In this document: positions 1 to 42,400 of the stretch, piece by piece
Layout of the letters: each line of letters starts with the position of its first letter
Numbering within the stretch: position 1 is the stretch's first letter
Source of the DNA: a virus
Taxonomy: Duplodnaviria > Caudoviricetes
Length of the DNA stretch: 64,000 nucleotides
Strand: one strand, 5' to 3'
Virus record (IMG/VR): IMGVR_UViG_3300032254_000001
Span: 256,001-320,000 of that record
The notes under the pieces: generated by a model
The model's input: only the letters and a program-made list of their open reading frames with translations
What the model was told of the DNA's origin: nothing
Databases searched by the model: none
Made by a program: the position numbers and the translations under genes

Positions 1-8
1 CTGCTTGA

Positions 9-404
9 TCAGATGTTAGTTCTTTCAAGTAGGTCTTCCTCTATTCTTTTCTGCTTATTCTCTTTACTAATATGATGAAGAAAGGCTGAGTGACTAACTT
101 GCACTAAAAATCCAAATGGGTTATTGCTTTTAGTTGAGTCAAAATGCTGATATGAAATTAACATTTGCATAACCGCAGCTTGAACTAAATCATCTGCGTA
201 CACTAGACTCTGATAATGTTTTCTGTGTAGTAGTCTATCCGCAAGTTCTATCATGTACTTGCCTAATGCTTGCGATACTTTGCCATCATTTTGTGCATAG
301 TCTATAGCAATAAGCAAATCAGAATTGTTGTTGATTGGACCGTAATAGCCCCACGGGTCAACTAACTTATCCCATACTGCACGTTGGTCTTTATTCAACA
401 GCAT
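9..404 (-). CDS. Truncated paralog of the gp55-like late sigma factor with an N-terminal AVWDKL tag
   Basis: DGKVSQALGKYMIELADR...KSNNPFGF...ISKENKQKRIEEDLLE aligns by eye with HGRTTNNLAMMYIKLCER...KSQNPFAY...LNIEKKMQNIRDDILE of the full gp55 at 28984-29961. Confidence 0.7.
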   Translation of the reverse strand: MLLNKDQRAVWDKLVDPWGYYGPINNNSDLLIAIDYAQNDGKVSQALGKYMIELADRLLHRKHYQSLVYADDLVQAAVMQMLISYQHFDSTKSNNPFGFLVQVSHSAFLHHISKENKQKRIEEDLLERTNI

Positions 405-684
405 TGAGTTTGTCCCATATAGCTTCTTTCTCTAAGCGATCATGGAACTCAATCATTGCTGCTTTTCTTTCTTTCTTAAAAAGATCAAGTGCTATCTTGT
501 GTGGGCAGTCCTCAGGGTACTCAGTTATGTTGTGTTCAGCTTCGCTTAAGCGACAAGAAACCCAAGTGTTGTCTGACTCGTAGTCCCTGCTGTGATCGCT
601 TATGTGTAATGTTTCATCCCACTCGTAGTAATTTTTACATTCAAGTATATCTCTGCACATACTGTCATAATGTATTCTAAACAT
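391..684 (-). CDS. Cys-containing hypothetical protein with C-terminal AIWDKL tag
   Basis: ATG at 684 preceded by GAGGA; shares NI..YPE.C.H and W.KL with 1765-2031. Confidence 0.7.
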   Translation of the reverse strand: MFRIHYDSMCRDILECKNYYEWDETLHISDHSRDYESDNTWVSCRLSEAEHNITEYPEDCPHKIALDLFKKERKAAMIEFHDRLEKEAIWDKLNAVE

Positions 685-937
685 CTTTCCTCTGCTCTGC
701 TGCAATTTCACTAATTAATATATCAGCTAGTTCTTGTTCAACATCTATTCCGTGTAGGGACTCTAGGTCTTTAGCAACGTCAACAGTCCAACTAGCACGT
801 AGCCTACGGGTCACAGGGCCAGTCTCCTTTAGGCGGTCCCAAACTTTTTCTTTCTCTCGTTGAATAGCTTCTTTCTGCTTCCGGATACCGTTGCGGATCT
901 TTCGTTGGTTCACTTGTATTGCTGTCTCTTTCATCAA
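677..937 (-). CDS. WxKL-tag mini-protein carrying a gp23 major capsid fragment
   Basis: KVWDRL followed by TRRLRASWT...HGIDVEQELADILISEIAAE; 21/39 identical to the MCP segment at about 8920-9040. Confidence 0.8.
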   Translation of the reverse strand: MMKETAIQVNQRKIRNGIRKQKEAIQREKEKVWDRLKETGPVTRRLRASWTVDVAKDLESLHGIDVEQELADILISEIAAEQRKDV

Positions 938-1166
938 ACTTCCATTCTCCTAGTATATGTTTATTAAATTCTGTCATATCTTTAGTCAGACTGTCAATGT
1001 ATGCGTCTACTAAAGACCAATCGATCCCATACTTCTGGGGGAGTTGTGTTACCCCAGATAATTTCTTCCATATGGTCTCTTCTTCTTTTTGCAGCCGCTC
1101 TCTTTCTTTTCGCCTCTGCTCTTTTCTTTTTCCGCGGGTCCTGAAACGTTTCCGTCTTGAAGTCAA
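804..1166 (-). CDS. Arg/Lys-rich WxKL-tag hypothetical protein
   Basis: TTG start with AGGAGG upstream; N-terminus MTSRRKRFRTRGKRK is paralogous to 994-1419; TIWKKL. Confidence 0.65.
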   Translation of the reverse strand: MTSRRKRFRTRGKRKEQRRKERERLQKEEETIWKKLSGVTQLPQKYGIDWSLVDAYIDSLTKDMTEFNKHILGEWKFDERDSNTSEPTKDPQRYPEAERSYSTRERKSLGPPKGDWPCDP

Positions 1167-1419
1167 AATGAAACCCTCCTACTGGTTCTATACCTGCTGT
1201 TTGTTCGCCCATTGGCTGTACACCAACTAAGTCGTCTGCAATCATTACAGGTGCTATGCGTCTCATTAACGGCATTAAAATAGCGCCAAGATCATCCCAA
1301 TCGTATTCAGGTGGTAGTGGCGGGCTAACATTTGTTAACTTGTTCCAAGTCTCTAACGACTCTTTCCTTAGTGCTTTACGCTTACCACGCTGCCTACGTC
1401 TGCGCCTGACACTAGTCAT
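994..1419 (-). CDS. WxKL-tag mini-protein carrying a gp23 fragment (Gol-peptide-equivalent region)
   Basis: ETWNKL followed by ILMPLMRRIAPVMIADDLVGVQPM; 13/24 identical to the MCP segment at about 9288-9360. Confidence 0.75.
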   Translation of the reverse strand: MTSVRRRRRQRGKRKALRKESLETWNKLTNVSPPLPPEYDWDDLGAILMPLMRRIAPVMIADDLVGVQPMGEQTAGIEPVGGFHFDFKTETFQDPRKKKRAEAKRKRAAAKRRRDHMEEIIWGNTTPPEVWDRLVFSRRIH

Positions 1420-1765
1420 CGTCGGTAATATCCTTAGGTTTAGGTTTCATTATTATAACATTATCATGCTCGTCGGACTTCTCGTATTTGTTCTTAATAC
1501 TATCTAACTTTTCTTCAAATGTGTCGCAGGCCCACTCGTTTAATTGATTGTATAAGTCAGCAGCACCAGGCGTCACAGTGTGTCTAAATGTTTCTGTTTT
1601 TGAATCATAATTGCTGATTATACGTTCTATTCGTATTACCCGCTTCCTGCGCCACCAAGACTTGAAATGAATAGTAAAAACATCATAAACCTTTGTGCCA
1701 ATCTTATGCTCCATTGTGTGCTCGAAGTATTCGATTTTATCAAAAAATTCTTTAGGTAGTATCAT
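1412..1765 (-). CDS. Hypothetical protein
   Basis: ORF tightly packed between its neighbours on the same strand. Confidence 0.65.
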   Translation of the reverse strand: MILPKEFFDKIEYFEHTMEHKIGTKVYDVFTIHFKSWWRRKRVIRIERIISNYDSKTETFRHTVTPGAADLYNQLNEWACDTFEEKLDSIKNKYEKSDEHDNVIIMKPKPKDITDDD

Positions 1766-2031
1766 TATAGGACCTGTATATGTACTGGATCACGTAAAAG
1801 TGATTTTACTGTTCTATGGGGTTGATTCAATTTCTTCCACATTATATCTTGTTGCTTTGCTTTATCTTTCGCAATGGTAATATCTTCAAGGTGCAAACAA
1901 CCTTCTGGATATTTAATAATGTTAATCGTCACACCCATTACAATACAGGAATGACATTTACCAACCTGCATATCAAACTCTCTGTGGTACTTGCATTCCT
2001 TTGATTTACAAAATTCATTAAAGTTATACAT
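1765..2031 (-). CDS. Cys-rich hypothetical protein with IMWKKL tag
   Basis: CxxxxC, CxxC and YPEGCLH; paralog of 391-684. Confidence 0.7.
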   Translation of the reverse strand: MYNFNEFCKSKECKYHREFDMQVGKCHSCIVMGVTINIIKYPEGCLHLEDITIAKDKAKQQDIMWKKLNQPHRTVKSLLRDPVHIQVL

Positions 2032-3055
2032 GCTCTACAACTACTTTTACATTTGGAAACGGTGTTATAAACTGCCCACATGCAGACTGAATTTCAACTC
2101 CGGTTGAAATTTGTATCTTTAAATTATTGTGAAACTTTGCAAACTGCACAATAATTTCCTTAAAGCGATCGCTTTCTTCCATTTCGTTAGCATCACATCT
2201 GTTATAGCGTAGTACTCTGAACTCGTAGTCTTCTAGATTCCACTTAGTGATAAAATCAAACAATGCTTGCACTTCTTCTTCGCTATCGTTAACACCATCC
2301 ATAAACATATGATGGAATATTAAATTATGTTTGTTGTTGTCTGCGTACTTTAACAGCTTCGGCATTGCTTCTTCCAATGGCATAGCTCCAGGAATAATTT
2401 GATCCCTAGTCTCTTGTACTGCACTGTGCAACGAATAAAACAATCTAAATGGACTGCGCTGTATGTAATTGCCCATTGATGATTGTGCTTCACTATGCAC
2501 AACAACCTTGTTATTTGGATTAGTTCCAAATGATTTTAGGTCTTCATTGAGCTCGTGAAATATGTCAATCCAATCATCGTTTCTAATTTTAGGTAGCACT
2601 GTTGAAAGATCAACACCATCTAAGCCTGCTGCGTAGTTGTTATCTGTTACGTAGTTTAACACATCGTTGGTTGCTCTGTACACCCCTGCTGGGTTAAGAA
2701 TTGCTTCGCCCATGCCCATCCAGCATACTTTCATGTATCTGCTTGCTATGCTTGCATCGTGTTGCACTGCATGATCAATTGCATCAATAAGATTTGATTG
2801 CACTGTAGTAATTGGCAGCTTCTTGTAAGGCATTTCTTTCATTGTTAAGTAACAGAAGTCACACTGCATCGGGCATCCGCCGCTAATCGATGCGAACACT
2901 GAATACTTATTTCTGTTAATAGGATTCATTTCCAGTACACCAGTTACTGGATTTCTAATTGTGTCGCAGCTTGAAACAGTTTTTATTGCAGTTTCAGACG
3001 TGTCGCTATGCACATACTTTGTTACTAGTCCGTCATCTGATTCAAAAACTTCCAT
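2024..3055 (-). CDS. RlmN/Cfr-family radical SAM protein
   Basis: SISGGCPMQCDFC cluster motif, MGMGE, SLHS and C-terminal SACGQ, all RlmN/Cfr hallmarks. Confidence 0.85.
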   Translation of the reverse strand: MEVFESDDGLVTKYVHSDTSETAIKTVSSCDTIRNPVTGVLEMNPINRNKYSVFASISGGCPMQCDFCYLTMKEMPYKKLPITTVQSNLIDAIDHAVQHDASIASRYMKVCWMGMGEAILNPAGVYRATNDVLNYVTDNNYAAGLDGVDLSTVLPKIRNDDWIDIFHELNEDLKSFGTNPNNKVVVHSEAQSSMGNYIQRSPFRLFYSLHSAVQETRDQIIPGAMPLEEAMPKLLKYADNNKHNLIFHHMFMDGVNDSEEEVQALFDFITKWNLEDYEFRVLRYNRCDANEMEESDRFKEIIVQFAKFHNNLKIQISTGVEIQSACGQFITPFPNVKVVVEHV

Positions 3056-3290
3056 TGGTATTCCTCTTCAATGAGTCCGGGTGAATTATTTCGTTACGAA
3101 CTCTGTTGTTTTCTCTTTCCCTTGCTGCTTCCATCTCTGCTAGTATCTCGTCTTGGATGCGACGAACTGCTTCTTCCATACGTCCTACCATGTGTCGTAG
3201 CATCTCTTCCCATTCCGTGTCATGGATAGAAGGTTCTTCCTGCAGACCGTTCTTTAAGCGATCCCAGACTTCTTCTTGCTCTGTGTTCAT
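3042..3290 (-). CDS. WxKL-tag helical hypothetical protein
   Basis: EQEEVWDRL at the N-terminus; overlaps its neighbours. Confidence 0.7.
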   Translation of the reverse strand: MNTEQEEVWDRLKNGLQEEPSIHDTEWEEMLRHMVGRMEEAVRRIQDEILAEMEAARERENNRVRNEIIHPDSLKRNTNGSF

Positions 3291-3472
3291 GCCGTTGTGT
3301 CCGATACTATTGTTATAGCCTTGTCAGCTCGAAGCACCTGTGTTGACCAATATATCGATCGATACATAAGTGGTTCAAATTTAACCTTAGGCTCTGGAAC
3401 ATGCTTAAGCTTTTCCCACACCAGTTCTTTATCACTGGGTTCTGCAGATGTTACTTTCTTGACTTTTGCCAC
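3287..3472 (-). CDS. WxKL-tag hypothetical protein
   Basis: DKELVWEKLKHVPEPK, nearly identical to the tag in 4112-4567. Confidence 0.7.
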   Translation of the reverse strand: MAKVKKVTSAEPSDKELVWEKLKHVPEPKVKFEPLMYRSIYWSTQVLRADKAITIVSDTTA

Positions 3473-3671
3473 TAAATTTTAATGCGAAAATTATCGCATC
3501 CTCCTTATACTCAAACCACCAACGTGTGTTAGTGTAATGGTGATAAAAACATCCACCATCTTGTTGTTCGACACACCACTTGTGAGCTTCTTTAATACAG
3601 TCACGACATGGTGGTGGAACAACAAACCATAATTCATTACGATGTTCCTTAGGTGGATTACACCACTTCAC
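3432..3671 (-). CDS. Small protein of the WC...[FW]xFExExDAxxFxL family
   Basis: WCVEQQDGG...WWFEYKEDAIIFALKF. Confidence 0.7.
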   Translation of the reverse strand: MKWCNPPKEHRNELWFVVPPPCRDCIKEAHKWCVEQQDGGCFYHHYTNTRWWFEYKEDAIIFALKFSGKSQESNICRTQ

Positions 3672-3919
3672 TCATCTTTACCTACTACCACATACTCGAC
3701 GCTAGATACGCCGTCACCTAAATCTTTGTGTACTAATTTAGTTTCCACCTTACCTCCTCGCATATCAGCGAACAGTTGCGATGCTTTTTTAAGTTCTTCT
3801 TCTGTGTTCTCTACTTCTTTCCAATTCGAAGCCTTGCTCAGCTTTTCCCACATTAATTCCTTATCGTCATCTTCTGTAGTCTTGCCAAGAAGTATTCTTT
3901 TAAAACGTTCTAAGTTCAT
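3668..3919 (-). CDS. WxKL-tag hypothetical protein
   Basis: DKELMWEKL; ATGA overlaps with neighbours. Confidence 0.7.
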   Translation of the reverse strand: MNLERFKRILLGKTTEDDDKELMWEKLSKASNWKEVENTEEELKKASQLFADMRGGKVETKLVHKDLGDGVSSVEYVVVGKDE

Positions 3920-4143
3920 TTGTCGATTGTACTCTCAATATCGAAATACATTGTTTTACCAGCTCCGCGTCGTGCTGCTATTACAACCAATTCACCTTTG
4001 CCAACACCACCACACAATGCTCTACCTAATTGCTGTTGGTACCATGTTAGGCCGTTGCCATTAAATGGTGGTACATACTCTGTGGATAACTTTTCCCACA
4101 TTAGTTCCTGCTCAGCGGCTTTTGAGGATTTTGATTGTGACAT
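3916..4143 (-). CDS. WxKL-tag mini-protein carrying an isolated Walker A (DnaB-like) fragment
   Basis: EQELMWEKL followed by GGVGKGELVVIAARRGAGKT, in only 75 aa. Confidence 0.7.
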   Translation of the reverse strand: MSQSKSSKAAEQELMWEKLSTEYVPPFNGNGLTWYQQQLGRALCGGVGKGELVVIAARRGAGKTMYFDIESTIDK

Positions 4144-4567
4144 TATTTGGATCCACCTCTTCTTTAGAAATACTTAGTATAGTGTCCATCATGCTCGGAT
4201 ATAATGAACTAATGTCATTATCAAACGTGCTACCCTTAGGCTGTGGAACATGTTTAAGCTTTTCCCAAACTTCTGCCTTTTCCTCTTCGATCTTCTGTAA
4301 TAAAATTTTAGCTTTAACACGGGTACCAAACACAGGACTTTTTGCAGCTTCCTGCAAGTCTGCTATCTCCATGCGGATCCGGTTGTCATGCTCCTCATCA
4401 GTATCAGTAATCATCCTAAGTCTAGCTTTTGCTCGTAGCCTAATGCCCATTGAATCATCCTTACTAAGGATTTTAAGATATTCCGGGCCATTGTTCATTA
4501 GCTCTATCTTCTCAGCTTCAGACATTGCCATTATTCTAATTTGGTCAAACAGATCAACTTCACTCAT
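4112..4567 (-). CDS. WxKL-tag protein carrying a family-B DNA polymerase motif A-like fragment
   Basis: EKAEVWEKLKHVPQPK followed by DISSLYPSMM. Confidence 0.65.
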   Translation of the reverse strand: MSEVDLFDQIRIMAMSEAEKIELMNNGPEYLKILSKDDSMGIRLRAKARLRMITDTDEEHDNRIRMEIADLQEAAKSPVFGTRVKAKILLQKIEEEKAEVWEKLKHVPQPKGSTFDNDISSLYPSMMDTILSISKEEVDPNNVTIKILKSR

Positions 4568-4797
4568 TTAAATTTTAATGCAAACAATGTTGCATCCTCT
4601 TCGTTTTCAAAATACCAATATGTTTCTCTAAATTCCACGTCCGCTTTATTTTCTTTATACCTGCGATAATATTGCCCTGATGAATTATGTCCTGTGCACC
4701 ATGATCCTTCCGCAGTATACGATCTAGATGCATGTCTAACTAATGTCACTTTATTCCACGGGTGGCCGTTAACATCGCCTATATCTTTATATTCCAC
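4564..4797 (-). CDS. Small protein of the FxFExExDAxxFxL family
   Basis: WCTG...YWYFENEEDATLFALKF. Confidence 0.7.
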   Translation of the reverse strand: MEYKDIGDVNGHPWNKVTLVRHASRSYTAEGSWCTGHNSSGQYYRRYKENKADVEFRETYWYFENEEDATLFALKFK

Positions 4798-4805
4798 AGT
4801 ACACC

Positions 4806-5225
4806 TTATTCATCAAACTTCTCATTTTTCAATTTATAAAATGTTTCAACGCTTTCTTCTGTGAACGGAACAAAGGTACTAGCCAATGCATCTTTGCCAG
4901 AAGTAAAATAAAATATCCAACCGCCCGGTACACGTTCAGCACAGGTATCGTCGTGTATATCTAAGCGATCATAATGTGGCATGGTATACAGTTGCCTGCG
5001 ATTCTTAGCATAGACCACTTCCCTTACTGCGGCTTCTTTAGCAGCCTCATCCATTTCTGCCCTGTGTTTCGCCATTATTTTGTCAATGCGATCACGGCGT
5101 TCTAATTCTTCACGTAGGCCTTTTGCCTTAGCTGCGTCTTTAGCTTCTTGCTCTTTCTTTTCTTTTAGTAGCTGCCGGTCTGCTTTACTTTTCCACATCG
5201 TGGTACTCCTCGGGAGGAGCTGCAA
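4806..5225 (-). CDS. Hypothetical protein
   Basis: Charged helical N-terminus and RVPGGWIFY C-terminal domain; start uncertain. Confidence 0.6.
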   Translation of the reverse strand: MQLLPRSTTMWKSKADRQLLKEKKEQEAKDAAKAKGLREELERRDRIDKIMAKHRAEMDEAAKEAAVREVVYAKNRRQLYTMPHYDRLDIHDDTCAERVPGGWIFYFTSGKDALASTFVPFTEESVETFYKLKNEKFDE

Positions 5226-5508
5226 TTGCTTCTAAGTCGTATACCACTCGTTTAATGTACTGGAACTTTGATTCCGGATCATCGCATAATGCCATCCATG
5301 CTAATTCCTTATTAAACTTGAATTTAAGTGTGTTAGCTACGCCATTGGTATAGCGATTGATACGGCTAAGTTCAGCTTCGTGGTCACGTTTAACCCGAAG
5401 GAACTGCTTTTCGCGGTAGTTAATATGCTGGGCTTGGCCTTTAGCCTTGTCTTCCAGATCCTTTATTTGCTGTTTAAGATCCTTAATTATATCGCGTTTT
5501 GATGCCAT
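5185..5508 (-). CDS. Coiled-coil hypothetical protein
   Basis: First ORF after the 5541-5569 promoter; ATG at 5508 (track start 5517). Confidence 0.65.
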   Translation of the reverse strand: MASKRDIIKDLKQQIKDLEDKAKGQAQHINYREKQFLRVKRDHEAELSRINRYTNGVANTLKFKFNKELAWMALCDDPESKFQYIKRVVYDLEAIAAPPEEYHDVEK

Positions 5509-5540
5509 AACTACCACTGAGGTTAACGAATTGTGTAGTA

Positions 5541-5569
5541 ATTATAGCAAGTTTTGGAGGGATGGTCAA
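5541..5569 (-). promoter_or_regulatory. sigma70-type early promoter
   Basis: TTGACC-17 nt-TATAAT with extended TG. Confidence 0.8.
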
Positions 5570-5808
5570 TCAGTTTTGGTGTCATCGAGTGTAATGTTAA
5601 CGCTTAAATAGGGGAATTCGGTGTCATCTACGTACTCAACATCGTACGGCTTTTCAATTGTGCAATCGGTACTTAAAAAGGCATCTACTGCCGTCTGTTC
5701 CTCTATGGATAATACCTCATCCTGGAAAAGCCATATATCCATAACCGATTCGAATCCACCGTGCTTAATAAGAAGCAGTGTCATTAGGTGTTCCTGTTCT
5801 GGAGTCAT
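5566..5808 (-). CDS. LILK[YH]G-family small protein
   Basis: LLLIKHGG...DIWL. Confidence 0.65.
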   Translation of the reverse strand: MTPEQEHLMTLLLIKHGGFESVMDIWLFQDEVLSIEEQTAVDAFLSTDCTIEKPYDVEYVDDTEFPYLSVNITLDDTKTD

Positions 5809-5855
5809 AAGTCAGACCTTTATGGGCTTCTGTGTTTGACGCTTTACAAGCCGTT

Positions 5856-5884
5856 ATGTTAACACACTATTTTGGTGTTGTCAA
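5856..5884 (-). promoter_or_regulatory. sigma70-type promoter
   Basis: TTGACA-17 nt-TAACAT with extended TG. Confidence 0.65.
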
Positions 5885-6033
5885 TGGCTGTTCTTTATAT
5901 GCACGTCAAAACCTTCTTTTTCATGCTCGTAATATACAGGAGTATTGTTCAAAATCTTTGCTATTGAATGTGCAAACTCTCTGTCTTCTGTCATTAGTCG
6001 TACGAATGTTGCTTTAAGCTCTTCGTCACTCAT
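5881..6033 (-). CDS. 50-aa hypothetical protein (not in ORF track)
   Basis: MSDEELKATFVRLMTEDREF...KNSH*; fills the gap between two same-strand genes and overlaps the upstream stop. Confidence 0.55.
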   Translation of the reverse strand: MSDEELKATFVRLMTEDREFAHSIAKILNNTPVYYEHEKEGFDVHIKNSH

Positions 6034-6247
6034 CTTCATTATCTGTATCCTTTGGATTATCGTATAGTTTGTTAAACTCTTTCTTTACATCTAAAACAAG
6101 ATTTGGTAATATTTTTATTGCATGTTCACCTAGTACTTCCTTCTGGGCATCACTGAACTGTTCTTTATCGTACAACCATATACAGAATGCGTTCTCTATA
6201 CTGCCGTACTTCAAAATTAAAAATGTTTTAACATCATCTTCACTCAT
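6026..6247 (-). CDS. LILKYG-family small protein
   Basis: FLILKYGSIENAFCIWL. Confidence 0.7.
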   Translation of the reverse strand: MSEDDVKTFLILKYGSIENAFCIWLYDKEQFSDAQKEVLGEHAIKILPNLVLDVKKEFNKLYDNPKDTDNEDE

Positions 6248-6447
6248 TTGCGTCTGGTCTCTGCAAAGAATATATTAATAGCATCGTGCAAGTGAGCGGG
6301 CATTTTATCGTGTGTATTGATCCACATATGGAATGCTTTGTCCAAATTGCCGTATTTTAATATTAAATATGATTCTATATTATCCATAGTTATCGGTCCC
6401 GGGTGATACGCTGTTCGCGTTACTAGCGTAACACACTCGTCTACCAA
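6244..6447 (-). CDS. LILKYG-family small protein
   Basis: YLILKYGNLDKAFHMW. Confidence 0.7.
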   Translation of the reverse strand: MVDECVTLVTRTAYHPGPITMDNIESYLILKYGNLDKAFHMWINTHDKMPAHLHDAINIFFAETRRK

Positions 6448-6465
6448 AAGTCAACCTCAATCTGC

Positions 6466-6678
6466 TCATTTTAAGTCATCTTTTAGTGTAACACTTACTG
6501 GATATTTAATACCATCTTTGGTATGCTCTAATATCATGTGTGCTAGTTCGGATATAGTAGGATCTGGGTCGTTCTTAAATACATCAAGATGCTTACCATA
6601 ACGTACCATTATGAACTTTTCTTCAAACGGTAAGGAGTAGTACTTGATGTGATCAAATACATTTGATTCATTTGCCAT
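6466..6678 (-). CDS. Hypothetical protein (distant LILKYG-like, FIMVRYG)
   Basis: Same-strand packed ORF. Confidence 0.6.
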   Translation of the reverse strand: MANESNVFDHIKYYSLPFEEKFIMVRYGKHLDVFKNDPDPTISELAHMILEHTKDGIKYPVSVTLKDDLK

Positions 6679-6847
6679 TATCTTTATCTCTTTGATCTAA
6701 ATAATCGTTAAGTGCTTTTACTGCTTCCGTTAAGTTGTCCTTATTTCTATCAGTATTGTATTTCTGGATTATATCCAATTTTTGTTCCGTTGTTAGGTAT
6801 TCCTTATTAAGGTTTTCCCATGTTTCTTCTTCAGGTGTTTTAGCCAT
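6668..6847 (-). CDS. 59-aa protein with a WxKL-like tag (EEETWENL); not in ORF track
   Basis: ATG 6847 to TGA 6668, MAKTPEEETWENLNKEYLTTEQKLDIIQKY...; first gene after the 6886-6914 promoter. Confidence 0.7.
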   Translation of the reverse strand: MAKTPEEETWENLNKEYLTTEQKLDIIQKYNTDRNKDNLTEAVKALNDYLDQRDKDNGK

Positions 6848-6885
6848 AATTCGTGCTTCTATCTTGAGGGCGCTTTACAGCACTT

Positions 6886-6914
6886 AGTATAACAATTTAA
6901 AATGCGTTTGTCAA
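6886..6914 (-). promoter_or_regulatory. sigma70-type early promoter (leftward)
   Basis: TTGACA-17 nt-TATACT with extended TG. Confidence 0.85.
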
Positions 6915-6928
6915 CCTTATCGTAATAT

Positions 6929-6958
6929 TTGACTTATACCCATTTTGCATGTTACACT
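6929..6958 (+). promoter_or_regulatory. sigma70-type promoter (rightward, divergent)
   Basis: TTGACT-18 nt-TACACT with extended TG. Confidence 0.65.
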
Positions 6959-6962
6959 CATC

Positions 6963-7035
6963 CTACGAAAGCGTAGAGCAGTTACACGCTTTTGGCCCAC
7001 TAGGGCCATCGAGGACGAAGTACTCGAGTAACTGC
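6963..7035 (+). ncRNA. Candidate structured 5' leader RNA
   Basis: CTACG/CGTAG hairpin; GCAGTTAC/GTAACTGC 8-bp stem enclosing GGCCC/GGGCC and TCGAG/CTCGA hairpins. Confidence 0.5.
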
Positions 7036-7053
7036 GAAGAATAGGAACTTATT

Positions 7054-7284
7054 ATGAATGTAGTACCCGGAGCATCTATAACAGCTATTAAAGATTCGTA
7101 CTTTATGGTTGAAGCACGTACTCCTTTTGAGCGTGATGGCGAATTATATCCATGGTGTAAGAATCACGATAGCGAAGGATATTTCAATTATGCTAATCGC
7201 TACTCTAGTGGCGGTAACGTCCGACCACAGTTTTGGTTTGAGTTAGAAGCTGATGCTATGTTGTTTAAGTTGAAATTCGCATGA
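7054..7284 (+). CDS. Small protein of the FxFExExDAxxFxL family
   Basis: WCKNHDSEGYF...FWFELEADAMLFKLKF. Confidence 0.75.
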   Translation: MNVVPGASITAIKDSYFMVEARTPFERDGELYPWCKNHDSEGYFNYANRYSSGGNVRPQFWFELEADAMLFKLKFA

Positions 7285-7628
7285 GACTTATAATAGCTGG
7301 AAGCAGACACTTAACACTTGATGTAGAAGGCATACAGGCCTTTATTAACTATTTAGGTATTACAGATATAACCGAAGTAGTGTGTGGCATGGCGCCTGGT
7401 ATTGATGCTGCTGGAAAATTATGGGCAGAATCTAATAACATTCCAGTTGAGCCGTTTCCTGCAGAGTGGGAGACGTACGGCAAAGCTGCTGGGCATATAC
7501 GCAATAAGCAAATGGCAGACTACGGTGATGAACTACTAGTAATTTGGAACGGTAAGTCTCCGGGTTCTCGTAATATGAAGACCACAATGGAAAAATTGGG
7601 CAAAAAGGTACACGAAGGCACATTCTAA
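7281..7628 (+). CDS. SLOG-superfamily (YspA/DUF2493-like) nucleotide-binding protein
   Basis: MRLIIAGSR, VVCGMAPGID, FPAEW..YGKAAG.IRN.QMA, W.GKSPG. Confidence 0.85.
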   Translation: MRLIIAGSRHLTLDVEGIQAFINYLGITDITEVVCGMAPGIDAAGKLWAESNNIPVEPFPAEWETYGKAAGHIRNKQMADYGDELLVIWNGKSPGSRNMKTTMEKLGKKVHEGTF

Positions 7629-7810
7629 TGACAAACGATTACCCATACAAAGTTAGATTTAAATGGCGTTACGGTGAAATGCTAAAGGATCTTTCTGCAT
7701 GGTGTAATGAGAATTGCACCGGCGAATATCAGTATCAATACACTGCTTCAGTGTTTTGGTTTAAAGAGTCTAAGGATGCAATGATGTTTAAACTGGCTAA
7801 CAACTTATGA
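7628..7810 (+). CDS. Small protein of the FxFExExDAxxFxL family
   Basis: WCNENCTGEY...FWFKESKDAMMFKL. Confidence 0.75.
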   Translation: MTNDYPYKVRFKWRYGEMLKDLSAWCNENCTGEYQYQYTASVFWFKESKDAMMFKLANNL

Positions 7811-7992
7811 TACTAAGCATTCCAATCAAAGATTACTGCATTGGTTGTCGTATGAAGTCTGTCAGACCGCAGTTTAAACCTAGGCAAGACGACTTCAATT
7901 ATCTGTACTTTAGTATTAACGATGTTGTGTACTTTGAATGGAGTAAGGAATTTGAGCAAGCTTTACTATGGGAGGCACTGCAACGTGATTGA
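7807..7992 (+). CDS. Hypothetical protein, paralog of 7985-8167
   Basis: PRQDDF...FEWSKEFEQALLWEAL. Confidence 0.65.
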   Translation: MILSIPIKDYCIGCRMKSVRPQFKPRQDDFNYLYFSINDVVYFEWSKEFEQALLWEALQRD

Positions 7993-8167
7993 ATACCAGC
8001 GACTAGACTATCCGTGGGAATGGTACGTACTTACTGAGAGGGATTTTATCTGTCGCCCTGATGACTTTAGGCGAATTATATTTAGAGTTGATGGTGCAGA
8101 ATTTATCGAGTGGAATGCAGAATTTGAACATGCTCTTTTAATAGAAAGGCTTAGCCGGTCTGCTTGA
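7985..8167 (+). CDS. Hypothetical protein, paralog of 7807-7992
   Basis: GTG at 7985 with GGGAGG upstream; RPDDF...IEWNAEFEHALLIERL. Confidence 0.65.
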   Translation: MIEYQRLDYPWEWYVLTERDFICRPDDFRRIIFRVDGAEFIEWNAEFEHALLIERLSRSA

Positions 8168-8192
8168 CAAACTAAAATTTACATGTTATGCT
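8164..8192 (+). promoter_or_regulatory. sigma70-type promoter with no downstream ORF
   Basis: TTGACA-17 nt-TATGCT with extended TG. Confidence 0.7.
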
Positions 8193-8280
8193 TAGTTCTG
8201 TCCAAGCAAGCGAGGTCAGTCGAACACGTTCGAGTCACCCGCAACAACAGAACCTACTTATCATGGATTACAACTCAAAA

Positions 8281-8306
8281 AAAAGCACTCTGTAAAGAGT
8301 GCTTTT
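8281..8306. terminator. Bidirectional intrinsic terminator
   Basis: AAAAGCACTCT-GTAA-AGAGTGCTTTT with A/T tails on both sides, between convergent units. Confidence 0.85.
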
Positions 8307-8346
8307 TAATTTTACTTCAAACTATCTAAGATAGTACAGTAACAAC

Positions 8347-9537
8347 TTAGCTAAAGCTTAAATTGCTGACTGCGACTTCCCCTAAATAATCTCCAGCATT
8401 ACCGAAAGATGATGCAGTATTCGTAAGCTCAATATAACCATAACGTGTCATAAAGCTTACAACTGGCTCAAATGTACTTGGATCAAGTACAACACCTGAA
8501 CTCATTAAAGGAACGTATGGGCAGTAGAACGCTGGTGCGTCTGCTTCGCTTGAACCTTTATAACCAACAAGTACTGGAGTAGTGTCGTTAGCATAGCTAT
8601 CAACGTAAACTTTCATTGCTGAGTTAAGAGTACCAACAAACTTAGTGTTTGTAGGAGCTTCAAATGTACCTTCAGTGGTACGTGCAAATGCAGAGGTAGT
8701 AGCTGACTGTAGTACAGTTAAAGAAGCTGGTGAAACAACTGCATAGTTACCAGCGCCACGACGTGTACGTGTAGCGATAAGGTTAGCTGTACGGTTGATA
8801 AGAACTGCTAATGCAGCATGTTCATCACCTACGAATGTAGCAGTACCTGAAACAAGTGACTGATCGTATGTGAATTCTGTGCTTGCTAATGAACGTAAAG
8901 ATAAAAGAATCTCTTGGTCAATTTCAGCAGTAATTTCTTGTGCTAAAGCAGCCATGATTTCAGCTTCAACATCAATGCCGTGCATTGACTGAGCATCTTG
9001 AGCAGCTTCAAAAGTCCAACGTGCTTGTAACTTACGTGTCTTAGCTTCAACAGCTTGCTTTAAGATCTGAACGGAAATGTTACGACCGCCTTCGCCTTCT
9101 AAGTTTGCTGTCTGTGCTGCACGGTAGTCAGCTTGTGTAGCGCCAACACCAGCTGAGTATGCTTGCGCAATCTTGAATGGTGATAGTGCTTCTTCGCCTG
9201 CTGCTGTACTAGTACTAGCTGCACTTGAATCAGTCATAGTAGAACCGTAACGTACACGAAGTGTATGAATCTGGCTTACAGGACCTGACATTGGCTGTAC
9301 ACCTACAAGTTCATTTGCAATGACTGTAGGCATAACACGTCGAATAACTGGTAAAATAACACGGTTTAATGTTGCAACGTTACCAGCGGCAGTAGCGCCA
9401 CTTGATGCAGATTCTGCTAAGTGGTTACGAGTGTTTTCCAAAATTACGCTCATTGTAGAACGTTTGGTACCGTCTAGACCTTCAAGCAATGCTTCTTTGG
9501 TCTCACCCCAACGGTTTTCTAATAGTGCTTGTGACAT
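8347..9537 (-). CDS. gp23: Major capsid protein (T4 gp23-like)
   Basis: LVGVQPM, TRKLQARWT, HGIDVEAE, FYCPYVPL and TRYG motifs. Confidence 0.97.
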   Translation of the reverse strand: MSQALLENRWGETKEALLEGLDGTKRSTMSVILENTRNHLAESASSGATAAGNVATLNRVILPVIRRVMPTVIANELVGVQPMSGPVSQIHTLRVRYGSTMTDSSAASTSTAAGEEALSPFKIAQAYSAGVGATQADYRAAQTANLEGEGGRNISVQILKQAVEAKTRKLQARWTFEAAQDAQSMHGIDVEAEIMAALAQEITAEIDQEILLSLRSLASTEFTYDQSLVSGTATFVGDEHAALAVLINRTANLIATRTRRGAGNYAVVSPASLTVLQSATTSAFARTTEGTFEAPTNTKFVGTLNSAMKVYVDSYANDTTPVLVGYKGSSEADAPAFYCPYVPLMSSGVVLDPSTFEPVVSFMTRYGYIELTNTASSFGNAGDYLGEVAVSNLSFS

Positions 9538-36044: not shown

Positions 36045-39000
36045 ATGGCAAAGACCTCTAGACAAACAGCAATATTCGGAACAGAAGACTGGAAGCGTAT
36101 TTACAAAACATACGAAGAAGCAGACCTTCAGAGTTATAACTTTGAAACAATTCGTAAGACATTTGTAGATTACTTAAGACAGCATCATCCGGAAACGTTT
36201 AACGACTTTACTGAAAACTCAGAATACATCGCATTGCTTAATGTAATGTCATTTATGGGGCAATCACTAGCATTCCGTAGTGATTTAAACACACGTGAAA
36301 ACTTCCTTGATACTGCTGAACGTACTGATAGCGTTAATAACCTAGCTAAGTTAGTTGGATATACTCCAAAGCGTAACGAAGCAGCTCGTGGTTACTTAAA
36401 GGTACTAGCGGCAGCAACAACAGAAAACATCACTGATTATAATAAAAACAATCTTAGTAACATTGCAGTACGCTGGAATGACAAAACAAATGATGACTGG
36501 CAAGAACAGCTTACTACTGTTTTAAATGCAGCACTAGTAGATAGTCAGAAGATTGGTCAGCCAGGACACAAAGCTAATTTAATTGGCATTGAAACGTCTG
36601 AATACGAAATTAATATGGAATCTGGCTTCTTGCCAGTAGTACCGTTCTCTGCAACTGTTAACGGCAGTGTAATGGATTTTGAAATCATTAACGGTACATC
36701 AATTGGTAAGTCTAATATATACGAACCAGCACCAAGTGCTAACGGTCAGCTTAACTTACTATACAGAAACGATAACCAAGGCTTTGCTAGCACAAACACT
36801 GGATACTTTTTCTACTTTAAGCAAGGTACATTAAAAACACAAGATTTCACTTTAAGTGAACGCATTGCTAACAGATCAATTGACATTGATGTGCCAGGCG
36901 TTAACGATAATGATATTTGGTTATACAAAACAAATACAACTAATACATCAGGCACTGAAGAGTGGACAGAAGTTGATAACATATATGCTACAAACAATAC
37001 ACAGCTAGACGTTGAAGATAGAAAATTCTTCAGTGTAACAAGCAGAGTAGACGATCAGATTACATTTAACTTCGGCGATGGCGTGTTTAGTGAAATCCCA
37101 ACTGGCGATTACCGTGCATATGTACGTGAAAGCAACGGCCAGGAATACATTGTAAATCCTGAAGAGATTCAAAACATTGATGTTAACGTAAGTTATATTA
37201 GCAAAACAGGTCGTAACGAAACACTTACTCTTACAATTGGATTAACACAACCAGTTTCAAATGCTAAGGCACGTGAAGAACTTGATGATATCAAGCGAAG
37301 AGCACCAGCACGTTTTTACACACAAAACAGAATGGTTAACGGTGAAGATTACAATAATTTCCCTTACACTTCTTACAGCAGCATTACAAAAAGTAAAGCT
37401 ATTAACAGAACAAACATTGGCGCAAGTCGCTACTTAGATCTTGTTGACCCAACTGGCAAATATAGTAGCATTAATGCATATGCTAGCGATGGTTTAATTT
37501 ATAAAGACTCTAGCTTAACATCATTCAACTTTACATTCAATGACAGAAATGACATTGACTCAGTATTTAGAAATCAGCTTGAGCCATTACTAGGTGAGCG
37601 CGGCACAATTCAGTTCTATTACGAGAACTTTACTCGTGTTGACATGTCACCAATTGACTTACTATGGAATCAAAATACAACTATAACAAACGAGACGTCT
37701 GGTTACTTTAAAGACTCTGCGTTACCAGTGGGCAATGCACAACCAATCGGTCCGTATGTTAGCGATAATAAGCAGTACCTATTACCACATTCATTGGTTA
37801 AATTTGTTGCACCAACAGGCTTGCACTTCAATGAAAACAATAGATTAATTGCAGGCACAGAGTTAAGTGCAGGCGACAAGACTGAAATATGGACTACTAT
37901 AACAAGTGTTGAGAACGAAGGTACAGCTGGTGGCGAAATTGCAGCATTACCAGCTACCACTGTTGGTCCAGTTAAATTAAATAATTTTGTACCAACTGGT
38001 GCAGAACCAGCTGAAGTTATACCACTATTTAATTCAGACTTGCCAGTAGCAATCGAGCAGGAAATGCTAGCACAGGTAGAATTACTACGTGCATTTGGCA
38101 TTGGCTTTGATCACTTAACTAATAGCTGGTACATTATCAGTGCTGATAACTTAAACGCAGACGGTGAGTTTAGTCTACTAAACGCAGGCTCAACTTCTAA
38201 CACGAATGCAGATGCTAGCTGGATGGTTAAGTTTATACCAACACCAGAAGGATACACAGTGTCTTCAAGAACATTACACTATTTCTTCTCAAGCATATTA
38301 GAAACAAGATTCTTTTATGATAACAGTCGCAGAATATTTGATCCTAGAACAGGACAGATAGTTAATGATTTTATTAGAGTATTAAAAACAAACAGCAAAC
38401 CAGACGGTACAAATCAGCCATTGTCGGGCGATGTGTTTATGGATATCATCGACCAAAGTGTTGAACCAGACGGTTATGTAAATGACTACAATGTAGAAGT
38501 TAGTTTTACTGACTTTGATAACGATGGCATTGCTGATGATCCAGATTACTTTAAGTTACTAGTTGATGAGACAGGCGAGAATCTAAACAAAAATGTTTAC
38601 TTCCAGTCAACGGTTGACTTTGACAACTTAGAAAGATTTTTACCAGTATCGTCTAGCTTAATTAACGACGAATACGATACAGAAGGTGCTATTGCATTAG
38701 TTAAAACAGAGTACAGCGCAGGGCAGATATTTTATGCAACTACCGACGCTAAATTCTTTGAATTAATAGTTGATGGCGATACTTCTAGAGAGCTAGAAGA
38801 ACGATTTGACTTTAGTGCAAAACTAGGACGTGGCGATTTACACTTCCAGTACAGACATAACAGTCCAGAAACTAGACGCATTAATCCAAGTGTAACAAAC
38901 ATCATTGATGTTTATGTTGTTACATCAGATTACTACGAATCGTACATAAGATACATACAGGACGTAACTGGATCAGTAACTGAACCAGCGATTCCAACAA

Positions 39001-39458
39001 CAGACGAGTTATCAGTACAGTACGAAGAGTTACAGGATAGCAAAATGATTAGTGATAACATGGTACTAAACAGTGTTAGCTTTAAGCCATTATTTGGAGC
39101 TAAAGCAGATGCGAAATTGCAAGCATACATTAAGGTAGTTAAACTTAGTAATTCAAATACAAGTGATAGTGAAATTAAGAGTAAAGTAATATCATCTATT
39201 AATAACTATTTTGATATTGGCAATTGGGACTTCGGAGATACATTTTATTTCTCAGAAATGGCAGCGTACATACATTCAGAATTAGGTAGCATTTTGGGAT
39301 CGGTTGTTATTACACCGAAAGACCCATCAATGGCGTTTGGTGATTTATACGAAATTAAGTCAGCACCGTACGAGATCTTTACTAGTGCGGCAACGGTTGA
39401 TGATGTAAATATAATTGATGCATTAACAGCAAGCAACTTACAGAACAGGGCAGGTTAA
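36045..39458 (+). CDS. gp6: Baseplate wedge protein (gp6-like)
   Basis: FNDFTENSEYIALL, FLDTAER, FGDGVF, QNRMVNGEDY. Confidence 0.88.
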   Translation: MAKTSRQTAIFGTEDWKRIYKTYEEADLQSYNFETIRKTFVDYLRQHHPETFNDFTENSEYIALLNVMSFMGQSLAFRSDLNTRENFLDTAERTDSVNNLAKLVGYTPKRNEAARGYLKVLAAATTENITDYNKNNLSNIAVRWNDKTNDDWQEQLTTVLNAALVDSQKIGQPGHKANLIGIETSEYEINMESGFLPVVPFSATVNGSVMDFEIINGTSIGKSNIYEPAPSANGQLNLLYRNDNQGFASTNTGYFFYFKQGTLKTQDFTLSERIANRSIDIDVPGVNDNDIWLYKTNTTNTSGTEEWTEVDNIYATNNTQLDVEDRKFFSVTSRVDDQITFNFGDGVFSEIPTGDYRAYVRESNGQEYIVNPEEIQNIDVNVSYISKTGRNETLTLTIGLTQPVSNAKAREELDDIKRRAPARFYTQNRMVNGEDYNNFPYTSYSSITKSKAINRTNIGASRYLDLVDPTGKYSSINAYASDGLIYKDSSLTSFNFTFNDRNDIDSVFRNQLEPLLGERGTIQFYYENFTRVDMSPIDLLWNQNTTITNETSGYFKDSALPVGNAQPIGPYVSDNKQYLLPHSLVKFVAPTGLHFNENNRLIAGTELSAGDKTEIWTTITSVENEGTAGGEIAALPATTVGPVKLNNFVPTGAEPAEVIPLFNSDLPVAIEQEMLAQVELLRAFGIGFDHLTNSWYIISADNLNADGEFSLLNAGSTSNTNADASWMVKFIPTPEGYTVSSRTLHYFFSSILETRFFYDNSRRIFDPRTGQIVNDFIRVLKTNSKPDGTNQPLSGDVFMDIIDQSVEPDGYVNDYNVEVSFTDFDNDGIADDPDYFKLLVDETGENLNKNVYFQSTVDFDNLERFLPVSSSLINDEYDTEGAIALVKTEYSAGQIFYATTDAKFFELIVDGDTSRELEERFDFSAKLGRGDLHFQYRHNSPETRRINPSVTNIIDVYVVTSDYYESYIRYIQDVTGSVTEPAIPTTDELSVQYEELQDSKMISDNMVLNSVSFKPLFGAKADAKLQAYIKVVKLSNSNTSDSEIKSKVISSINNYFDIGNWDFGDTFYFSEMAAYIHSELGSILGSVVITPKDPSMAFGDLYEIKSAPYEIFTSAATVDDVNIIDALTASNLQNRAG

Positions 39459-39461
39459 CAG

Positions 39462-42400
39462 ATGGCACGAATTCGTAGTATAGATTTTCTACCAGAGATT
39501 TTTCAAACTCCAACCAACGAAAAGTTTTTAAACTCGACACTTGATCAATTAATTCAAGAACCGAAGTTAAAGCAAACACAAGGTTATATCGGTGCTAGAA
39601 CAGCACCCGGTAAGTTAGAGACTGACGGTTATATAACAGAGATAACTGATAGAAGATCAAATTATCAACTTGAGCCAGGCGTTATTTTCAAAGATGAAAA
39701 CGGTGGCACAGTTGATGCATTAACGTACATGGGTCTACTAGACGGACTTGACACTTCAGGTTCGAACGTAGAAAATCACGATCGTCTATTCAAATCAGAG
39801 ACATACAGTTGGTCTCCATTTATTGAGTTTGATAAGTTTGTAAACTACAGCCAGTACTTTTGGTTACCTTCTGGACCAGACAGCGTTGACGTTGCCGCGT
39901 CTAGTGTTTTATTAACAAACGACTTTGATATAACTGCAAACGACGAAACATATTCAATTGATGGATTTACCATCGAGAACCCTGTAATTACAGTGTTACG
40001 TGGTGGTGCATATGATTTTAATGTTAACCAGAATGGTAGTCCATTTTATATCCAAACACATCCGGGCACTGATGGTACAGTGCCGTGGGCAGACAATATA
40101 AGCAGTCGTGAAATTATCGGCGTTACAAATAATGGCGACGATAACGGTACAATTACATTTAATGTGCCACAAAGCGATGCGCAGAGCTTCTACTATAATT
40201 TACCAGATATTGGTAATGTTGATTTAGCAACAACCGTCCGAATGGATTCAATTGCTGACCAGTTACTAAGTGACGTGGTCACTGTGTCTGGTATACAAAG
40301 TATCGATAATATGACTATTGTTTTCTTAGACGATACACCAGGTGATGCAGTTGACCTAGGTTGGGTTAACGGTGGCGTGCCTTTAACAGCACAAGAAGAC
40401 AGATACCAAATATTTAGAATTTTCCTTGAAGATGTGCTTGGTGAGATATACATTAGATTAATTCCAATACAGCCAATTACTATTTTTGAGAAGTTCACTA
40501 TACTATACGGTGCAGATTACAGTAACATAAGTTTCTTTAAAGACTCAGATGGTTACTTTGATCAAGTACCACTAGATACAGCTTCACTTGATACTTTATA
40601 TTACCAAGACGCTGTTAACCCAGATCGTTTTGGCATCATTAACGTAGTTGATCAGGAATCATCTGCAACACTAGATGTCGATGCTATACTTGGAAGAACA
40701 GATTACACAAGTCCAAACGGTGTAATATTTACTAACGGACTTAAAGTAAAGTTCCGTGGCGAAGTATCACCTGCAGAGTACTCAGACGAAGAGTACTATG
40801 TTGAAGGTGTTGGTACATCAATACGCCTTGTATTAACATCGGACTTACAAGTTCCTGAAACGTATGCTAAGAGTTTCACATCACCGTGGGATATCTCAGG
40901 ATGGGATACAGAAGGACTAGACGGAACATTAAATGCTCCACTTGACTTAGATTACATTACTATTAACAGATCTAGCTTAGATAAAAATGCTTGGTCTAGA
41001 AGTAACAGATGGTTCCACCTTGACGTTATTAAAGCGACAGCTGAATATAACAACACGGTAGTGAACGTTGATAACAATAATAGAGCTACACGCCCAATTA
41101 TTGAATTTGATGCAGACTTACGTTTATTCAACTACGGTACAAACGGTAAGCAACTTGTTAACATCATTGACTTTGTTATAACTGACGCATTATCAACTAT
41201 TAATGGTTCGTTAGGTTACACGGTTGACGGATACAAATTGTCAGAAGGCAGTCGTGTTATATTTGCTAACGACGCAGATCCATCTATTAGAGATAAAATT
41301 TTCGTAGTTGAATTAATTGATCCAACTAACTCAGGAACCGACACACTGAACCTTGTTGAGGCAGCTGATGCAGACAGTGAAGAAAATGACATTGTTATAG
41401 TAGCTACAGGTATTGAACAGCAGGGTAAGGTATTCACGTACGATGGCACATCATGGGTTGAATCACAAGCTAAGACATCAGTTAATCAGCCTCCATTATT
41501 TGATATATTTGATCGCGATGGATATTCACTAAGTGAATTTACTGCTTACCCAAGTACTACATTTACAGGATCTAAGTTATTCAGTTATAGTGAAGGAACA
41601 GGGTCAAGTGACCCAGTACTTGGATTCCCATTAAGCTATTTGAATATTGATAACTTAGGTGACATTGTTTTTGAGAATAACATGTACACTGATACCTTCT
41701 TATATGTAGAAGATAATGTATCTAACGAAAACAGTCCAATAAGCGAAGGCTTTGCTAGGAAGTACAACACTCGTACTGAATACACAAATGAAATTGGCTG
41801 GGTAACATCAATAGAAAACTCACGCCAGGCACAAGTTATTGAAATGGCATATGCAGGCGAGCCAATTGAATTAGACATTCTTCCAGAATCTGATTTATTA
41901 ATCCCAGCGGTTAGGATCACAGCTGATGGTACCTTTATTACGCCAGGTGAATACACTGTAGTAGATAACATCATTACATTTATTAGTGATATTGCAGACG
42001 GTGCAGCATTAGAAATTAAAGTAATTAGTAACGAGATTAGTGCTAGTGGCTATTACGAAGTGCCAACTAACTTGTCAAGCAACATGTTCAATAAAAACAC
42101 ATCGTTATTAACACTTGGTACGATTCGTAACCACTATAATAACTTGTCGCAAAATGTACTAGACATAACAGGTGACATCAATGGCGCGAATAACTTACGT
42201 GACTTAGGCGACATAAGCAAGTACGGTAATCTTATTGTACAGCAGTCATCACCGCTTGCACTTGCAGCGATGTTCATGCGTAACAAAGAGTATAACTTCT
42301 TTGGTTCAGTTAAGTTTGCATCACGCCAGTACGATAAATTCAAAAGCCAATTAATTGACTGGGTTGAAAAGCATGATGTATATGATCTTACAGTAAGTGA

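Follow-up and report, generated by a model that had tools for sequence, protein, structure and literature searches.

The described systems that lie closest to the protein analysed here, a 75-residue phage product that we call q75, are the SF4 helicases, small phage proteins that copy a piece of a larger one, and designed P-loop polypeptides. The SF4 helicases (T4-type gp41, T7 gp4 and bacterial DnaB; PF03796, PHROG 19/239) have a G-G-x-x-x-G-E-L...A....G-K-[ST] string in common with q75, which differs from them in retaining some 35 residues of a domain of roughly 250 and in having an unrelated tag helix fused in front. Specifically, q75 possesses H1/Walker A preceded by strand 1 (residues 51-64), and is devoid of H1a, H2 (Walker B), H3, H4, the arginine finger, the N-terminal helical domain and the linker helix; its N-terminal 31 residues, comprising the tag helix and a Pro-rich linker, align with no helicase profile. 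Because just one of the defining motifs of the family is present, q75 falls outside the SF4 helicases.

The T4 early proteins Srd and Srh, which are listed as sigma-factor decoys (PMC3594737), offer a second comparison: they and q75 are small proteins that copy a piece of a larger essential protein, are early (in the case of q75, probably so), and would act, by the analogy proposed, through competition rather than catalysis. Unlike Srd and Srh, q75 copies a phage-type helicase and not a host sigma factor, has no sequence relation to them, and carries a tag that is common to a dozen neighbouring mini-proteins. In this respect q75 resembles small phage proteins whose sequence derives from part of a larger protein, and is at most a fragment mimic. 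With regard to helicases as targets, Ped1 is an example of phage proteins that bind the host helicase (PMC13728149), and in bacteria Avs20 detects the RecA-type ATPase domain of phage primase-helicases in a way that does not depend on catalysis (PMC13581612). Finally, binding of NTPs and ssDNA, together with strand-separation activity, has been described for synthetic beta-(P-loop)-alpha polypeptides (bioRxiv 10.1101/2020.07.30.228619). These prototypes are similar in size to q75 and likewise combine a single strand with a Walker A loop and a brief stretch after it; however, they are designed ancestral reconstructions, whereas q75 is a natural phage gene in which helix 1 is truncated, and some of its homologues lack GK[ST].

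The q75 gene and its tagged neighbours

The window, i.e. the whole stretch of 64,000 nucleotides that was analysed, corresponds to bases 256001-320000 of a virus record that measures 344,483 bp, carries direct terminal repeats and is rated complete. The source is a giant uncultured T4-like phage, with a T4-type major capsid protein encoded in the window (Pfam Gp23, E 5e-96) and, elsewhere in the genome, an intact gp41/DnaB-type helicase of 458 aa (genome 192395..193771, with its own Walker A), a family-B polymerase and a large terminase. Distant from q75, the window also contains a single 4373-aa ORF (39462..52583, plus strand) that adjoins a 1137-aa ORF (36045..39458). The original prediction had described a 75-aa ORF with an unpaired Walker A, and this ORF was found on the minus strand at exactly 3916..4143 with the quoted string present. 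The prediction also had Walker A followed by MYFDIES and then directly by a stop codon; the first part of this description is accurate, whereas four residues intervene between MYFDIES and the stop. The gene and its parts are as follows.

3916..4143 (stop codon included), minus strand: q75 coding sequence, a 75-aa mini-protein, from the ORF list; relatives have an open frame of the same length class
4153..4159, minus strand: Shine-Dalgarno-like GAGGTGG, visible in the sequence 9 nt upstream of the ATG (4143)
4112..4143, minus strand: dual-coded 32-nt overlap of the q75 start with the upstream ORF 4112..4567, from the sequence, and comparable in contigs L086, L089 and L090
3668..3919, minus strand: downstream tagged ORF of 83 aa, starting in an ATGA overlap with the q75 stop (tag HMM E 2.7e-5)
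4081..4143, minus strand: N-terminal module, residues 1-21, a Lys/Ser-rich start and then the amphipathic tag helix E-L-M-W-E-K-L-S-T; the best-conserved part of the family
4051..4080, minus strand: Pro/Gly-rich variable linker, residues 22-31, in indel-rich alignment columns
3946..4050, minus strand: cargo, residues 32-66, homologous to the SF4 helicase H1 region by profile searches and hhalign
3952..3975, minus strand: Walker A, residues 57-64, A-R-R-G-A-G-K-T, a canonical [AG]xxxxGK[ST] read directly from the sequence
3919..3951, minus strand: C-terminal tail, residues 65-75, with F-D-I-E; an FD[IL]E-type tail occurs in 6/25 homologues
5541..5569, minus strand: candidate early promoter, TTGACC-17-TATAAT with TG, from a consensus scan; the nearest strong sigma-70-like match upstream of q75

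A DNA pattern for a tag variant led to a 23.9-kb IMG/VR contig (L086/L087) with the same row of small genes after a capsid gene, providing an opportunity to evaluate how the q75 frame has evolved. Between q75 and its L086 orthologue, the one alignable orthologue used for pN/pS, amino acid identity is 46%, with pN of 0.32 and a saturated pS of 0.70. Ordinary flanking genes of the window are 63-67% identical to those of L086/L087, with a pS of about 0.66; the two phages are thus old relatives, in which the q75 frame has been kept by selection. Indeed, 46% identity in the presence of saturated synonymous change indicates that the frame is under purifying selection. In the same phage pair, the C-terminal 202 residues of the capsid protein (8347..9537, minus strand, versus L087:19-627) are 99% identical with a pS of 0.41, whereas neighbouring genes show saturated pS and identities of only 27-68%; the capsid gene has either been exchanged or is under extreme constraint.

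q75 is a genuine gene, translationally coupled to both neighbours. Its L086 orthologue has an AAGGAG box at the same spacing as the GAGGTGG of q75, and is overlapped by its upstream gene over 35 nt (L086:1618-1652). In the metagenome contigs L089 and L090, the upstream tagged mini-protein ends V-T-I-K-[IV]-[LI]-K-x-R and overlaps the start of the q75 homologue, such that the same gene pair with the same start/stop overlap occurs in four independent contigs. The corresponding upstream ORF of the window (4112..4567) is a tagged mini-protein with a PolB motif A. In addition, the overlap is dual-coded, with both V-T-I-K-[IV]-L-K-x-R plus stop and M-S-x-S-K-S-L-K conserved across the four contigs, and this dual coding may be a partial cause of the extreme conservation of the first 10 residues of the family. 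On the opposite strand of the window, the long ORFs (140 and 168 aa) are Ser/Leu-rich, and no conservation of either was found in the relative L086.

Downstream of the capsid gene, small ORFs follow one another on the minus strand from about -400 to 6850 in window coordinates, and q75 is one of them. The genes of this row are co-oriented and tightly coupled, and the row is syntenic in L086/L087, where at least 10 members have orthologues. Its members bear a tag, which the regular expression E-x-(x)-W-[DEKN]-[KRN]-L captures with 13 of 19 genome-wide matches inside this 7-kb row, including E-L-M-W-E-K-L at residues 13-19 of q75. That q75 is a tagged peptide, as originally predicted, was also evident from a tag-only HMM, which significantly matched three neighbouring ORFs at 3287..3472 (E 1.4e-5), 3668..3919 (2.7e-5) and 1765..2031 (1.3e-3). 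The codons of the tag motif differ synonymously among copies. Several neighbouring cargos contain strings that resemble, by eye only, conserved parts of the capsid protein, of a gp55-like sigma factor and of a tail-fibre repeat, as well as PolB motif A (D-I-x-S-L-Y-P-S). Pfam searches of four ORFs with tag-like strings outside the row gave no clue to the origin of the tag. Among 80 other relatives with 80-89% MCP identity, the row, q75 and the tag are absent downstream of the capsid gene, and the row is therefore confined to a sub-lineage.

The row and its surroundings contain several further elements. A 343-aa radical-SAM protein lies inside the row (2024..3055, minus strand; Pfam Radical_SAM just below threshold), with RlmN/Cfr-like strings recognisable by eye (CxxxCxxC, M-G-M-G-E, and A-C-G-Q near the C-terminus). 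Its single relative found, in L005 (48% identity), is without the tagged row, and L086 has an unrelated 319-aa ORF at this position. Two sets of paralogous small proteins are also present. The first (3432..3671 and 4564..4797 on the minus strand, 7054..7284 and 7628..7810 on the plus strand) ends W-[FY]-F-E-x-x-x-D-A-x-x-F-x-L-K-F, and its copy at 3432..3671 is 68% identical to the L086 orthologue with no Pfam match; the second (5566..5808, 6026..6247 and 6244..6447, minus strand) has L-I-L-K-Y-G-x-x-x-x-A-F-x-x-W near the N-terminus, with several copies in L087 and L090. Overlapping frames recur elsewhere in the row: the ORFs 677..937, 804..1166 and 994..1419 overlap by 130-170 nt, and the segment 1029..1070 (minus strand) reads as a tag in two frames, as E-T-I-W-K-K-L in ORF 804..1166 and as I-I-W-G...E-V-W-D-R-L in ORF 994..1419.

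Sigma-70-like promoters were sought upstream of q75. Besides the match at 5541..5569, strong matches in coding-strand intergenic gaps occur at 6914..6886 and 5884..5856, although the total number of sigma-70-like matches is not above that in shuffles, and the minus strand shows no terminator-like site from the match at 5541..5569 down to q75. These consensus matches hint at transcription of the row by the host polymerase, i.e. early. No enrichment of the T4 late promoter TATAAATA was seen, and it thus gives no guide to late versus early timing. An Rfam scan of positions 1..9000 detected no RNA family. Further upstream, a 12-bp stem without mismatches, flanked by T-runs on either strand (8280..8307) and reminiscent of a bidirectional terminator, separates the capsid gene from a divergent block of small genes (7054..8329, plus strand).

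Homologues of q75 and the origin of its cargo

Homologues of q75 were recovered by profile searches and number about 30, all metagenomic and all 54-116 aa in length. A profile of q75 and its L086 orthologue, searched against 1.84 billion representatives of any length, returned 15 small proteins of 61-116 aa, and a profile search of a set of 5.8 billion proteins returned 23 proteins of 54-116 aa, all of them metagenomic and none named. Two long tandem-repeat proteins from the search of representatives (P0007 and P0017), which we guess to be assembly artefacts, were omitted from the family, and the counts given below rest on an alignment (A3) of 25 members. Other approaches yielded little. In the phage collection, blastn detected no close relatives, tblastn gave only weak Walker-A matches to DnaB-like helicases, and a search for related loci with q75 alone returned nothing; in metagenome DNA, a pattern combining the strand, the P-loop and FD had zero matches. 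A word-indexed protein search recovered the query alone in the near-length range and nothing longer, having missed the true homologues because they share no 5-mers with q75. The family is unannotated, without Pfam, PHROG or NCBIfam membership, and its members appear as "hypothetical protein" in their sources. In a language-model look-up the nearest entries were small viral clusters, one of which (87 aa) has DnaB_C in 13% of its members; this lead may indicate that detached helicase pieces occur in other phages too.

In the alignment, the N-terminus is nearly invariant (M-S-Q-S-K-S-L-K-x-D-K-E-L-M-W-K-K-L-S-T) and is followed by a variable linker. The cargo is conserved, reading Q-Q-x-L-G-R-G-L-R and then G-x-K-K-G-E-[LV]-x-V-x-A-x-G-x-x-x-G-K-S, and extends from the stretch before the hydrophobic strand 1, through that strand and the P-loop, into the first turn of helix 1. 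Eighteen of the 25 members retain GK[ST] and seven have lost it, which implies that the P-loop itself is not indispensable; the full [AG]xxxxGK[ST] pattern occurs in 11/25, and the first Walker position is not conserved. After GK[ST], the proteins continue either as an amphipathic helix or, in 6/25 including q75, as a short FD[IL]E-type tail, which in the q75 subgroup takes the place of a truncated helix 1. In three members (P0016, P0028 and P0029), a Q-x-L-G-R-A-[LM]-R helix is located after the P-loop and not before the strand, as if the modules had been permuted.

The short length of q75 and the position of its Walker A near the C-terminus are features that a decaying remnant of a duplicated helicase would have, as would the first exon or a fragment of a split helicase or terminase. 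We consider this origin highly improbable, and it is already largely refuted by the distribution of the family. The same short length recurs in about 30 homologues, the gene order is conserved and the frame is under purifying selection. The original prediction would have fallen had the orthologs at this locus been full-length helicases; instead, the three other contigs and all other relatives found encode proteins of 54-116 aa, and a full-length helicase with the N-terminus of the family was found in none of the word-indexed, representative and 5.8-billion profile searches. Moreover, the downstream ORF (3668..3919) has its own tag and no ATPase similarity, and helicase similarity was looked for there and not found. 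Within the genome, DnaB_C occurs twice, in the intact gp41 and in q75, and the phage's own TerL is intact and unrelated. No longer form of q75 was found in the word-indexed and representative searches.

The similarity of the cargo to helicases was evident at the level of both the single protein and the family. q75 matches Pfam DnaB_C at profile positions 11-35 (E 0.009; 15.9 bits against a cut-off of 27), PHROG 19 (DnaB-like helicase) over residues 36-65 (E 4.8e-5), PHROG 239 (primase/helicase; E 0.0034) and, among NCBIfam models, phage_DnaB (E 8e-4; 18.4 bits versus a cut-off of 498) as well as DnaB, RadA and KaiC. Of the 25 family members, 11 match PHROG 19, eight PHROG 239 (best E 2.3e-5), six DnaB_C and five AAA_25, and thus significant hits, on which the prediction had been made to depend, exist at the family level. 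By chance, a loose Walker A regular expression would be expected 0.005 times per 75 aa at the composition of this genome. A cargo-only HMM built from the 25 homologues was also searched against all six-frame ORFs of at least 40 aa of the genome. After q75, the phage's own gp41 ranks first (E 5.2e-6, 23.9 bits), matching at residues 168-194 in its Walker A region; a weaker second match (E 0.005) is to a 380-aa ORF, possibly a UvsX/RecA-type recombinase. Consistent with these results, hhalign aligned the family (columns 35-71) with residues 159-196 of the own gp41 at 88% probability (E 3e-6). The H1 string of q75 itself is identical to that of the own gp41 at 10 of 24 positions and is more like bacterial DnaB, and other family members share with the own gp41 the strings G-G-F-x-x-G-E-L and A-x-G....G-K-S-[LM]. 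The predicted DnaB/gp41-type H1 motif is accordingly borne out by PHROG 19, NCBIfam, the cargo HMM against the own gp41, and hhalign. From these profile comparisons, we conclude that the probable ancestor of the cargo is the H1 region of a T4-gp41/T7-gp4-type SF4 helicase.

Two further identifications made in the original prediction did not hold. A terminase Walker A had been offered as the weaker alternative; however, no alignment with q75 was obtained for the own TerL, nor did the cargo HMM match it, and a terminase origin (large-subunit families PF03237 and PHROG 38) was rejected with PHROG 38 matched by 1/25 members (E 0.012) and an own TerL that is intact and unrelated. The F-D-I-E of the tail had been likened to the polymerase ExoI motif, which in the own polymerase reads F-F-D-I-E-V. 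FDIE occurs in 4 of 532 predicted proteins, the cargo profile has no match to the own PolB, and the residues in question align with the start of helicase helix 1, with nothing beyond chance to favour ExoI. The FD[IL]E tail is nevertheless conserved within its subgroup (6/25), and on that account is probably functional.

A different identity for the cargo emerged from comparison of the family profile with the PDB. The best matches there are the KOW-like region of the eukaryotic ribosomal protein eL6 (E 0.014 over 45 positions) and eL27, which rank ahead of T7 gp4 (0.16); Pfam KOW was matched by 1/25 members (E 0.11), the first AF2 run was all-beta, and the tail of q75 has a beta-like periodicity. 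The likeness to helicases could then be historical or coincidental, the cargo being a small, possibly KOW/SH3-like, beta element that was exapted while the tag carries the function, which would suit a family whose tag and N-terminus are best conserved and in which GK[ST] is lost in 7/25. Over a stretch this short, the KOW pattern resembles that of a strand plus Walker A; the PDB matches of the family to eL6/eL27 come from a basic-x-G-x-hydrophobic strand-G-R-x-x-G-K pattern. However, the own gp41 scores about 5 bits above eL6 (23.9 vs 18.8) with the hhalign probability at 88%, and DnaB-type families are matched independently by 11/25 members. Furthermore, family members and the own gp41 have in common the string G-G-F-x-x-G-E-L...A-x-G....G-K-S, and the long-tailed members continue as a helix after GKS, like P-loop proteins and unlike KOW. 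We therefore regard an exapted beta element as unlikely, though deserving of consideration, and on these profile scores it appears to be a weaker rival to the helicase reading of the cargo.

Possible modes of action

The possibility of catalysis by q75 is readily addressed. As originally predicted, there is neither a Walker B nor space for an ATPase fold, with only 11 residues after GKT, and the claim that the protein is non-catalytic agrees with its ending 11 residues past GKT. Lacking both a Walker B and an arginine finger, q75 is not an ATPase, and Pfam searches of the genome found no partner ORF supplying either element. Structure prediction was of limited help: AF2 models from 2 and from 25 sequences both had a mean pLDDT of 61, one being all-strand and the other mostly helix and coil, and the tag helix was placed at residues 7-20 with low confidence. 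Overall, q75 is a conserved non-enzymatic two-module mini-protein, in which a shared tag helix and a Pro-rich linker precede a helicase H1 piece of about 35 residues.

In the manner of a natural minimal P-loop protein, a tag-oligomerised strand-P-loop-helix unit could bind phosphate ligands (NTPs, polyphosphate) or single-stranded nucleic acid. The retention of GK[ST] in 18/25 homologues and the conserved basic residues flanking the loop (G-R-G-L-R, K-K-G-E) are compatible with such a role, as is the precedent of similar-sized synthetic beta-(P-loop)-alpha polypeptides that bind NTPs and ssDNA (10.1101/2020.07.30.228619). It seems doubtful nonetheless, given a GK[ST] missing from 7/25 members, a first Walker position that is not conserved, the replacement of helix 1 by the short FD[IL]E tail in the q75 subgroup and the lack of a confident fold.

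The action that we tentatively favour, with somewhat less than even confidence, is protein-protein binding, in which q75 would act stoichiometrically as a stand-in for the helicase segment, akin to the bait or mimic of the original prediction; Srd and Srh, Ped1 and the Avs20 sensor serve as precedents. The cargo would take up a binding surface that is ordinarily contacted by the nucleotide-site/subunit-interface region of an SF4 helicase. Candidate owners of this surface are helicase subunits or loaders, whether encoded by the phage, the host or a rival phage, and host sensors that recognise RecA-type ATPase domains. A function common to all members of the row, for example stability, oligomerisation or recruitment, would come from the tag. 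Several results argue against this stand-in role, including the limited identity of the q75 H1 string to the own gp41 (only 10/24), the loss of GK[ST] in 7/25 homologues and AF2 models without a confident fold (pLDDT 61). In addition, strand 1 is buried in the folded helicase, and the isolated piece is therefore not an obvious surface mimic. Avs-type sensors, moreover, recognise whole core folds via extended interfaces (PMC13581612), and a 35-residue piece would hardly reproduce such an interface, which likewise counts against stand-in binding.

The composition of the row raises the further, and in our judgement rather improbable, prospect that q75 is one element of a phage-encoded decoy library, each member joining the tag helix to the most conserved segment of a core protein and blunting immunity or rivals. 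Peptides made early from the capsid protein, polymerase, helicase and late sigma factor would occupy the sensors or partners of those proteins; the immunity blunted would be host pattern-recognition, with rival phages as alternative opponents, and q75 would be directed at a sensor or partner of the RecA-type ATPase domain found in replicative helicases.

Whatever the mechanism, an unannotated family of about 30 proteins is now defined. q75 presents a rare natural Walker A loop without the rest of its fold, and is thereby relevant to minimal P-loop peptides. The main interest of q75 lies in the row-level design. If the piece does stand in for the helicase, this would be a natural case of a virus competing by means of an active-site segment detached from its own replication enzyme, and q75 would be one of a conserved row doing likewise with segments of the capsid protein, polymerase and sigma factor. 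This would provide a testable link to the recent finding that core phage proteins, RecA-type helicase domains among them, are sensed by bacterial receptors.
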